Shown one piece after another: positions 21,552 to 23,309 of a stretch of DNA of 64,000 nt. This DNA comes from Botryllus schlosseri (lineage: Eukaryota). The notes below the pieces were generated by a model. The model was not told the origin of the DNA. It ran no database searches and worked only from the letters and a program-made list of their open reading frames with translations. Within the stretch, counting starts at the first letter, position 1; each line of letters opens with the position of its first letter. The DNA lies in assembly GCA_051294905.1 (NCBI GenBank), contig CM119372.1:22012001-22076000 (forward strand), in the 5' to 3' direction. A program made the position numbers and the translations under genes.

Positions 21552-22253
21552 TCAGTCTATCAATATCGCAGTCCGAACGAAAACCACATTATCATCTTTC
21601 AACTCGTTAGGTATAAAGTGTTTGCTTGCCCATAACCAGTTTTTGCTTCCTTTCCATTGCCATAGTTGTAATGGCTGACATTGTTCAGAATTGTTCCACT
21701 TTTTCAGAACGTCCTTACGAGGGTATTTGGATTTACTCTGTGCACTAGGCAGTGTAACAGATATTCTGTGTCTCTTTTCCCAACCTTTAGGCGCCTTCTC
21801 ACAAGTAGTGAGTACCCCGAATTTGTATTTATATCCCTGCAGATATTTTTGTTTCATTGGCAATAACCCATTGTTCAATGCTTTACGGTATTCTCCATCA
21901 GTAAGGTAAGCATATAGCTTATCCACATTAGGATGTATCTCATAAGATCGAAACATTCTCCAAACTTCACTCAAGCTTTCTTCAAACCCCGGCCTCTTCT
22001 TTCTCCAGTCATTTCCTTGCATTTCATTGGTTATACTTAATTGTAGTGGATTTAGCCGTGAGTTACAGGGTAAAGGCCACACAGTTATAAGCTTCATTCG
22101 GTCCACATAATTACTTCCTGAAATGGTAGGTTTCATATTCCATCCATGTCGTATAATTCCATATTCCCTCAGTCTCAGATGCATAGCAGCATTAGCCGAC
22201 CTACTAGGATAATATGGTAGATTCCTATTCATCTGAAATAGATATACAATCAT
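21552..22253 (-). CDS. 233-aa protein with a degenerate Tpt1 C-lobe (ART-fold)-like motif
   Basis: Intact ORF overlapping the pol end; LYAYLTDGEYRKALNNGLLPMKQKY resembles the LYHGT-x8-GL-x-PM-x-R pattern. Confidence 0.6.
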   Translation of the reverse strand: MIVYLFQMNRNLPYYPSRSANAAMHLRLREYGIIRHGWNMKPTISGSNYVDRMKLITVWPLPCNSRLNPLQLSITNEMQGNDWRKKRPGFEESLSEVWRMFRSYEIHPNVDKLYAYLTDGEYRKALNNGLLPMKQKYLQGYKYKFGVLTTCEKAPKGWEKRHRISVTLPSAQSKSKYPRKDVLKKWNNSEQCQPLQLWQWKGSKNWLWASKHFIPNELKDDNVVFVRTAILID

Positions 22254-23309
22254 GAGGAATTATGTCCGAAGATAGTACAACTTTCGACGCGTCATTCAAG
22301 GACCATAGTGATTGTGGTTTGAGTCTTTCTATGTCAATACAAATGCAGACTTCTCCCTTTTGCTTCGCATCTTTTTCGTCCGTGTATAGATGTACAAAAC
22401 GTCTTCCCATCTTAGCTATGCCTTCCACCATAATAGGGGGTACTCGGTTCTTTCGAGTGGCATGAAACAATGATGTTAGCCCTTCCGGGTTAATCCACTG
22501 TTGCATTTGCGGATTCTGTCCTTTAGTATGTCCCTGTTTTGCCGCAATCCCATGATCTGAGATCATTATTCTGTCTTTCTCAATCCATTCCGTCGGATTA
22601 TCATAGCCATATTTCATAGCACATGCAAAAGGGTGCCAACCCCTCTTCTGTAGCATACACTCTGTATGCCTGAGATGTTTAATCAATTTTCTGTTAAGCT
22701 TTTCTTTCTCATTTTTTGTCATTCCGCCTTTCTTGATAGCTATCCAGGCCAGTGGGTCACCTTCTTCCACTGCCGTGTTTTCAACAAACACTCTTGATAG
22801 CGCATCCGCAGTGAATATTTCTGACGTAGAAATATGAACCACGTTCCTGATATTGTAGGCGCTGATCACAGCCACCCATCTCATCATTTGCGGGTCATCT
22901 GAAGCTTGTTTGTTACCCTCAGTGGCTTTCTTCAATATTCCCATTACTCCTTTGTTGTCCGTAAGTATTGATACAGGTCTACCCAGAAGTATAGAACCCC
23001 ATTTTTCGAAAGCTCGTACTACCGCCAACATTTCCTTTTTACACGCGCTGTATGAACTTTTTTCATTAGGTTTCCATTTCTTTGAGTAATAAGCCACGGG
23101 GTATATCTGTTTGTGGGGAATGGGTTCTTCGTTCTCCGTTTGGTATAGGACTGCACCCATCCCGTCCAACGCCGCATCTGTTTGTATGAAGATTGGTAGC
23201 CCCATTCGTAAATGAAAGAGCGTTTTCGGTCGTAGTAGAACATCACGCATTTTCGTGTAATTATCAAACAGCGTTCGTGTCCATTTAACAGGTACTCGCC
23301 TGCTTTGTG
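22225..23309 (-). pseudogene. pol: pol 3' half: RT connection, RNase H, Tpt1/KptA domain
   Basis: RNase H motifs IQTDAALDGMGAVLYQ, PVAYYSKK, KEMLAVV, LTDNK, RW, ADALSR. Tpt1 motifs KHLRH, GW, KDRI, AKQGHT, LFHAT, EGIAKMGRRFVHL. Stop at 22225; no integrase follows. Confidence 0.92.

Follow-up and report, generated by a model that had tools for sequence, protein, structure and literature searches.

We analyzed a window of 64,000 nt from the genome of Botryllus schlosseri (assembly GCA_051294905.1, contig CM119372.1, positions 22,012,001 to 22,076,000 of the forward strand), which carries a retrovirus-like element on its minus strand. The last 164 residues of the polymerase polyprotein (Pol) of this element truly belong to the Tpt1/KptA superfamily: they have both lobes, the complete catalytic tetrad and the residues of the NAD+ pocket, and they almost certainly represent a genuine domain that is fixed in Pol. 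The Tpt1/KptA-like domain forms the C-terminal end of Pol and was delimited by Pfam, hhalign and AlphaFold/Foldseek to 22228..22719 (minus strand), followed in the translation by the Pol stop codon (22225-22227, minus strand). A first-pass annotation, made from the letters alone, had placed a Tpt1/KptA domain after the RNase H at 22225-22735, which fits the delimited domain together with its stop codon. The minus-strand frame 22225..23337 (370 amino acids (aa) from stop to stop) holds an RNase H and then the Tpt1-like domain in one translation: it reads ...FTADALSR (the end of the RNase H), KLNRKLIKHLRH...KRGWHP...EKDRIMISDHGIAAKQGHT...LFHAT...EGIAKMGRRFVHL...VVLSSDIIPHDCISISDE and then stops, with the motifs KMGRRFVHL and VVLSSDIIP near the C-terminus. 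The connection domain of the reverse transcriptase (RT) and the RNase H lie in the same frame at 22855..23283 (minus strand), as identified by Pfam (RT_RNaseH, 1.8e-23, residues 47-161 of the 370-aa frame; RT_RNaseH_2, 1.1e-19, residues 19-124).

The assignment was made at several levels of sequence comparison. The window copy matches the Pfam family PTS_2-RNA (PF01885) with an E-value of 1.9e-9 (residues 262-356 of the frame, profile positions 73-175 of 177). A sister copy on another contig, in which Pol is unbroken, scores 35.2 bits, also above the cut-off, and a second family of elements scores 41.1 bits over profile positions 9-177 of 177; all 102 listed matches of a genome-wide PF01885 scan exceed this cut-off. 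Among the sequences of the PDB, phmmer found 12 matches, 11 of which are Tpt1/KptA (best 9ld4, 2.6e-6). Alignment A1 combines the window domain with 13 domains that belong to different element families of this genome and share 23-35% identity with it. Compared by hhalign with 15 canonical KptA enzymes, A1 gives a probability of 99.86 and an E-value of 2.9e-31 over 171 columns that include both lobes, a match that is therefore far beyond chance; identity to the canonical enzymes is 20% in this alignment and about 20-25% overall. The A1 profile, run over 1.84 billion representative proteins at a threshold of E <= 1e-3, retrieved 1466 proteins, with retroelement-type matches first and then ordinary KptA proteins of ~180 aa (1e-12 to 1e-9, profile positions ~35-203). 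A word-based protein search with the Tpt1 part recovered none of its 306 candidates as a relative, whereas this exhaustive profile search did find relatives.

An AlphaFold model built from 116 sequences is confident (pLDDT 90.3, pTM 0.82). The closest structure found by Foldseek is 9ld6_A, the KptA of Thermococcus kodakarensis with DNA and NAD+ (root-mean-square deviation 2.9 A), and the 15 listed Tpt1/KptA chains match with a TMq of 0.68-0.79, which gives the two-lobe fold of an RNA lobe and an NAD+/ADP-ribosyltransferase lobe. The catalytic tetrad of Tpt1 is Arg-His-Arg-Arg, which binds the junction 3'- and 2'-phosphates (PMC6333775). In the window domain, the tetrad corresponds to R54-H55 (HLRH), R87 (EKDRI) and R143 (KMGRR) in the numbering of the 201-aa C-terminal stretch of Pol. 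All four residues are invariant in the 14 element domains of A1, which come from different families, and they align with the invariant R17-H18 (LRH), R58 (KxRF) and R114 (PMxR) of the 15 canonical enzymes. The 116-sequence alignment, in its own numbering, has R106 in every sequence and R17, H18 and R50 in at least 90% of them. H123, T125 and H147 occupy the positions of the canonical H-G-T and V-H-L residues in the NAD+ pocket. The first-pass annotation had proposed a PTS_2-RNA profile search and a structure prediction as checks, and had picked LRH, the Arg of EKDRI and the Arg of MGRR as the tetrad. All three were borne out: the profile match lies above the curated cut-off (38.3 bits vs 26), the predicted fold is that of Tpt1 (the best 20 listed PDB matches, ranks 1-22, are all Tpt1/KptA, with a TMq of 0.79 for the best), and the picked residues are those that align with the canonical R-H pair, the KxRF-Arg and the PMxR-Arg. 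As judged from these residues, the domain is probably catalytically active. The Arg of the canonical I-R-A motif is replaced by Ala or Gly throughout the element clade, at a position outside the tetrad. We considered the Ala in GIAAKQGHT as a lost catalytic Arg and rejected this reading, given that the canonical position itself varies (Cys in P0041, Lys in P0051) and that the third Arg of the tetrad is the KxRF Arg, which the domain has kept.

The 201-aa stretch matches 102 places in the 495.5-Mb genome. Five of these, at 93-100% identity, constitute the family of the window's element, and the remainder match at 27-40%. The junction of RNase H and Tpt1-like domain is present in all five copies of the window's family, 52 of the 102 matches lie within open frames of 1000-1324 aa that belong to several families, and the domains sampled at 15 further places carry the same motifs. 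The domain, for which the first-pass annotation had left a one-off capture as the refuting outcome, is thus found in other copies and in other families. Nine pairs were compared for dN/dS of the Tpt1 part, eight of which were usable (L048/L052 was dropped as out of register). The values are 0.20, 0.23 and 0.43 within the window's family and 0.19-0.23, 0.15 and 0.08 for five pairs from other families; by this codon measure, the domain is evidently kept under purifying selection. In the genome-wide PF01885 scan, the canonical Tpt1 genes of the host score 156 and 180 bits and the element domains 28-50 bits, so that the domain is not a recent capture from the host. Fifteen matches to canonical Tpt1 are clustered on a single contig (19.31-19.43 Mb), two of them full-length (180 and 156 bits), an unusual expansion of the host's own gene. 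In a quick maximum-likelihood search (unrooted and without taxon labels; input restricted to matches covering at least 130 profile positions, 128 of 150 used), the resulting tree of 142 domains separates 25 retroelement-type from 117 canonical rows by a branch with an SH-aLRT of 90. This is compatible with a single old acquisition.

Eleven public proteins from the profile search were scanned for domains. Six of them combine RNase H and PTS_2-RNA, and four of these six also contain an RT, so the RT-RNaseH-Tpt1 order for which the first-pass annotation had suggested a search does occur in public proteins. P0032 and P0038 have RT, RNase H and PTS_2-RNA, while P0031 and P0037 have RNase H and PTS_2-RNA. 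P0040 and P0178 encode a complete Exo_endo_phos domain after the Tpt1-like domain (1.9e-18), and a protease-like LADTGS motif can be read in the sequences of P0038 and P0040. P0178 (1122 aa) has the order protease, RT, RNase H, Tpt1-like domain and then an apurinic/apyrimidinic (AP)-type endonuclease; we are not aware of a described retroelement that has its domains in this order. A short relative is labelled by its source as ‘probable RNA 2'-phosphotransferase [Styela clava]’.

The complete organization of Pol is seen in the sister copy, which is 99% identical to the window copy and colinear with it from 11142 to 38589. Its Pol is one unbroken frame of 1195 aa with the Pfam domains RVP (residues 105-185), G-patch (367-410), RVT_1 (620-772), RNase H (844-986) and PTS_2-RNA (1087-1181). 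In the window, Pol consists of two frames, the RNase H-Tpt1 frame (22225-23337) and a G-patch-RT frame (36757-38598; G-patch 5.9e-13, RVT_1 5.6e-20 by Pfam). The upstream part of Pol extends over 36762..38589 (minus strand), with the G-patch at about 38041-38172 and the RT at about 36955-37413, and is 5'-truncated: homology to the sister copy stops at 38589, and about 224 codons at the start of Pol, with the protease, are missing from the window copy, since its G-patch starts at residue 143 of the frame as compared with 367 in the sister copy. Between the two parts lies a foreign insertion of 13,451 nt (23311..36761, no strand assigned; delimited by self-comparison and target duplication) with 6056-nt arms that are 100% complementary around a 1337-nt centre. 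It is a foldback-type (palindromic) transposon that landed in Pol, because the arms are complementary, a 7-nt target duplication (TTTGTGA) flanks it at 23304-23310 and 36762-36768, and the other four copies of the family (L002-L005) do not have it. The insertion carries 41-nt and 124-nt tandem arrays in mirror positions, and relatives of it (80-93% identity) occur close to the sister copy (L034). On the flanks of the sister copy, parts of its own Gag-like region are repeated in inverted orientation (L031, L033), and two mirror-image copies of its 3' end with identical flanks indicate a palindromically rearranged locus. No integrase (rve) was found in the Pols of the window, the sister copy and the second family or in the other scanned frames, a scan beyond which the 5' end of the >34-kb family described below extends. 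The first-pass annotation had described Tpt1 as fused to Pol where an integrase should be; in agreement with this, no integrase was found, and Pol is not continuous in the window copy, which is split and has lost its protease end.

The second family, here called the sister family, is much larger. Its Pol is 1205 aa long, and at least six copies are colinear for more than 34.6 kb upstream of the 3' end; one such stretch (L063, L042, L036, L037) covers about 35 kb on a single contig. Besides small proteins paralogous to those of the window's element, the sister family encodes a mucin-like membrane protein, a leucine-rich repeat (LRR) protein (5.9e-76), an E2 ubiquitin-conjugating enzyme (4.7e-48) and an inhibitor of apoptosis (IAP) with three BIR domains and a RING (3.5e-59). 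Its Gag (954 aa) has a CCHC knuckle and directly precedes Pol. Pol lies in the -1 frame, and an in-phase A_AAA_AAC heptamer precedes the gag stop by 12 nt. All six copies compared end at the identical base (...CACTAGTTCC) without a tail, and no long terminal repeat (LTR) was found in this family, as its terminal 265 nt occur once per copy. The gene order is Gag and then Pol in the sister family, whereas the window's family has Pol first and a cut Gag-like frame last; the two orders look like circular permutations of each other. Taken over the families, the order within Pol is protease, (G-patch), RT, RNase H and Tpt1, and the clade is large, diversified and retrovirus-like. One derivative of the sister family is internally deleted, with about Pol residue 452 joined to about residue 1048 and the loss of both RT and RNase H; it keeps a 162-aa Tpt1 frame together with the 3' end and is found at eight places (L062 and seven others). 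We considered these 162-aa copies as independent 5'-truncations, which would be a sign of target-primed insertion, and rejected this in favor of one internally deleted derivative. The remaining case of a 5'-truncation is the window copy as compared with its sister copy only (n = 2).

These features lead us to a proposal for the role of the domain. RNase H leaves 5'-phosphate ends, and so does an AP endonuclease. Because Pol of the sister family follows a CCHC Gag by way of a -1 frameshift, the Tpt1 enzyme would probably be made as part of Gag-Pol and packaged with RT and RNase H. The packaged domain would be an active NAD+-dependent enzyme that acts on phosphate monoesters of the element's replication intermediates. 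Tpt1 enzymes ADP-ribosylate the 5'-phosphates of RNA and DNA (PMC6182162 and PMC12678800). By analogy, the reaction that we tentatively favor, as the foremost of several candidates and at less than even odds of being the main one, is the transfer of ADP-ribose to a 5'-phosphate, as KptA/TRPT1 enzymes do on nucleic-acid ends. Capping is favored over the other reactions because the RNase H and the appended AP endonuclease leave 5'-phosphates: the adjoining RNase H would supply such ends on RNA fragments as well as on cDNA once the primer is removed, and in the relative with an appended AP-type endonuclease the substrate would be the 5'-phosphate at the nick. A 5'-phospho-ADP-ribose cap would block both ligation and 5' exonucleases and may in this way control the fate of the cDNA ends in an element without an integrase. 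The first-pass annotation had suggested a comparable role in capping or protecting cDNA ends or in repairing RNA, which is likewise a proposal.

Several observations weigh against a packaged, active capping enzyme. The window's own copy, split and 5'-truncated, is unable to make Pol, and the packaging argument draws on the sister family, as the window's family has no Gag-Pol junction. RNA reads on the sister copy number 43, 9, 6 and 0 in four RNA runs; the 43 reads cover the region of the Tpt1-like domain and the adjoining 235-aa frame on both strands, 35 of them fit in part, and all are too few to show a transcript, its start, its end or the joint. The KptA equivalog models of NCBIfam hit at 1e-13 and yet stay far under their cut-offs (NF002013, 51.3 vs 231 bits; NF002014, 38.1 vs 239; NF002015, 21.8 vs 279), and on this sequence evidence the domain is a divergent branch of the superfamily and not a KptA equivalog. 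When modelled from A1 alone, AlphaFold resolves the C-lobe only (pLDDT 71-88, the N-lobe staying below 50), so that the confident second model leans on an alignment composed mostly of canonical KptA. The N-lobe is ~15 residues shorter in the window's family and, in A1, has a clade-specific set of invariant residues (H52, C58 and H66) that canonical enzymes lack. Finally, 5'-capping and 2'-phosphate removal share one active site (PMC12678800), and for this reason conservation of the tetrad does not separate the two reactions. As to the N-lobe set, its residues form the motif H-x-R-H-x-x-C...G-x-H-P, which may represent a metal site.

The removal of internal 2'-phosphates is the classical activity of Tpt1 enzymes. 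A phosphate remover of this kind, or a terminal 2'/3'-phosphomonoesterase, acting on the template RNA or the primer of the element is the next alternative, and we consider it rather unlikely. Such an enzyme would erase the internal 2'-phosphate left by a yeast-type ligase, which would stall the RT, or would free a blocked 3' end to give a 3'-OH primer. The full tetrad and both lobes are retained as in 2'-phosphotransferases, with a tetrad that binds junction 3'- and 2'-phosphates (PMC6333775), and terminal phosphomonoesterase activity is reported for a subset of Tpt1 enzymes (PMC6573784). The many canonical Tpt1-like genes of the host also suggest that substrates may exist in this organism. 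However, these same canonical enzymes could already serve the element, and it is the RNA-binding N-lobe that has changed most within the domain. There is, moreover, no known source of internal 2'-phosphates in the RNA of the element, and Rfam gave no match at the gathering score, to a ribozyme or to any other RNA family, in the whole window.

A host-directed enzyme that modifies host nucleic acids, or that reverses a host mark such as an ADP-ribosylation or a phosphate-based restriction of the RNA or cDNA of retroelements, appears doubtful. The host-manipulating IAP, E2 and LRR genes of the sister family would suit such counter-defence, as would the ADP-ribosyltransferase fold of Tpt1, for which Foldseek also lists weaker matches to PARPs, DarT and toxin ADP-ribosyltransferases. 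Yet the domain lies inside Pol in every family examined, while the accessory genes vary among families, and it stays beside the RNase H even in the distant public relatives. Slightly more doubtful still is a domain without catalysis that serves Pol as a nucleic-acid-binding or structural module, for instance by holding cDNA ends or by recruiting host factors. Its strong divergence (20% identity by hhalign, scores far under the equivalog cut-offs, a remodelled N-lobe) is what one would see in this case, but the tetrad and the His/Thr/His of the NAD+ pocket are invariant across families that share 23-35% identity, which is the pattern predicted by selection on catalysis. That a host TRPT1 exon came to lie in frame by chance after a decayed RNase H, to which the broken and 5'-truncated state of the window's copy might point, can be practically dismissed in view of the junction in 5/5 family copies, the 52 long open frames, a dN/dS below 0.5 in all eight usable pairs and a separate set of host genes with far higher scores.

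The rest of the element follows Pol on the minus strand and brings its size here to about 14 kb, with both ends sharp against unrelated repeats. A 235-aa frame (21555..22259) shares 35 nt with the end of Pol, which is read in a different frame, and also comes after Pol in L002-L004; it has no Pfam family and no usable Atlas match. It is followed by a frame for an Env-like glycoprotein (18522..21407, 962 aa) with a hydrophobic, signal-like N-terminus, 17 N-x-S/T sequons, one RSKR site at residue 574 and a membrane anchor at residues 861-893. No Pfam family matches this frame either, and its Atlas features are nearest to the clusters of herpesvirus gB and rhabdovirus G (0.89), which we take as a lead only. 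Four accessory frames of 244, 200, 151 and 136 aa occupy 14229..18246; the latter two have homologs among the small frames of the >34-kb sister family (7e-39 and 1e-33). Between the small frames and the Gag-like frame, there is a 91-nt tandem repeat (13539-13811 and 13821-14652), a region that is ~830 nt longer in the window copy than in the sister copy. The last frame (11142..13094, minus strand) encodes a coiled-coil protein in the position of Gag according to the order of the sister family, and would correspond to Gag on the basis of this gene order. The element ends at 11142 within this frame, which from there reads 22 codons into the flanking DNA, and the cut precedes any knuckle, leaving no Gag-Pol junction in the window's family. 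A self-comparison of the window revealed no direct repeat (LTR) bracketing 11142-38589. Another RT-bearing element (3676-5285, plus strand; RVT_1, 3.2e-31) adjoins the 3' end of the element studied here and is accompanied by direct repeats at 5639-6066 and 10725-11147; the segment 10300-11147 is part of a repeat of which at least 39 further copies exist, with 93-99% identity.

Among known systems, the domain is closest to Tpt1/KptA/TRPT1, with which it shares the two lobes and the tetrad; in both, the NAD+ lobe has the H-x-T and V-H motifs, and both are ~165-180 residues long. The nearest solved structures are those of T. kodakarensis KptA (9ld6, 9ld4), of Aeropyrum pernix and Pyrococcus horikoshii Tpt1 (8tg3, 8tfi, 1wfx) and of Clostridium thermocellum Tpt1 (6e3a, 6ede). 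It differs in being the C-terminal domain of a 1195-aa Pol and not a free-standing enzyme, and in its shortened N-lobe. The element resembles Ty3/gypsy-type elements and their Env-carrying relatives (errantivirus-like, Tas/Cer-type) in its retropepsin, RT, RNase H of the RT_RNaseH/RT_RNaseH_2 type and Env-like gene, to which the sister family adds a CCHC Gag and a -1 frameshift at A_AAA_AAC. In contrast to these elements, no integrase and no LTRs were found, the size ranges from about 14 kb to >34 kb, and there are several accessory genes. The RT-RNase H part is only 21-27% identical to the nearest Pols in the databases, 20 of 27 of which carry the integrase core PF00665.

Caulimoviridae and Hepadnaviridae are reverse-transcribing viruses whose Pol lacks an integrase. 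The elements described here share this lack, and the copies of the window's family have their start in Pol and their end within the Gag-like gene, the arrangement expected of a linearised circle. However, the six sister-family copies that end at the same base do not look like products of random illegitimate integration, we found neither movement nor terminal-protein domains here, and we know of no Tpt1 in either virus family. With non-LTR elements of the AP-endonuclease type, there is a likeness in the Exo_endo_phos domain of P0178, in the absence of LTRs and in the 5'-truncation of the window copy, whose 3' end is that of the sister copy. They differ from the elements described here in three respects: neither Pol of this genome has an endonuclease (Exo_endo_phos being found only in P0040 and P0178), there is no poly(A) or simple-repeat tail, and Pol combines a protease with an RT of the LTR-element type.

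The Tpt1 fold itself is known, while a retroelement Pol as its setting appears to be new, and the surrounding elements may represent more than this. We did not find a description of an RT-Tpt1 fusion in the literature searched, a coverage that leaves out most subscription journals, and term look-ups in a review of retrotransposon-polyprotein accessory domains and of a 2026 survey of Env-carrying retrotransposons returned none. A Pol with protease, RT and RNase H, without integrase or LTRs and with base-precise 3' ends, fits no described class, and neither do elements of >34 kb with IAP, E2, LRR and several glycoprotein genes. In its widest form, the proposal would be an undescribed class of retrovirus-like elements of about 14 kb to >34 kb in which the integrase has been replaced by an NAD+-dependent enzyme of the Tpt1 type (joined by an AP endonuclease in some relatives), and in which terminal phosphates of the cDNA, of the primer or at nicks in the target site have to be ADP-ribosylated or removed for replication or insertion. 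We advance it as a speculation that stands well short of even odds.

Tpt1/KptA/TRPT1 enzymes are present in all domains of life, and their role outside tRNA splicing in fungi and plants is open (PMC6573784 and PMC6333775). An enzyme of this type that dozens of intact copies carry in long-standing fusion with RT and RNase H offers defined nucleic-acid substrates on which Tpt1 chemistry can be tested, and a packaged end-capping or end-trimming enzyme could be a useful tool. The finding points to an undescribed step in the copying or insertion of these elements and, if the proposal is true, would provide the first clear biological role of Tpt1 chemistry outside tRNA splicing.

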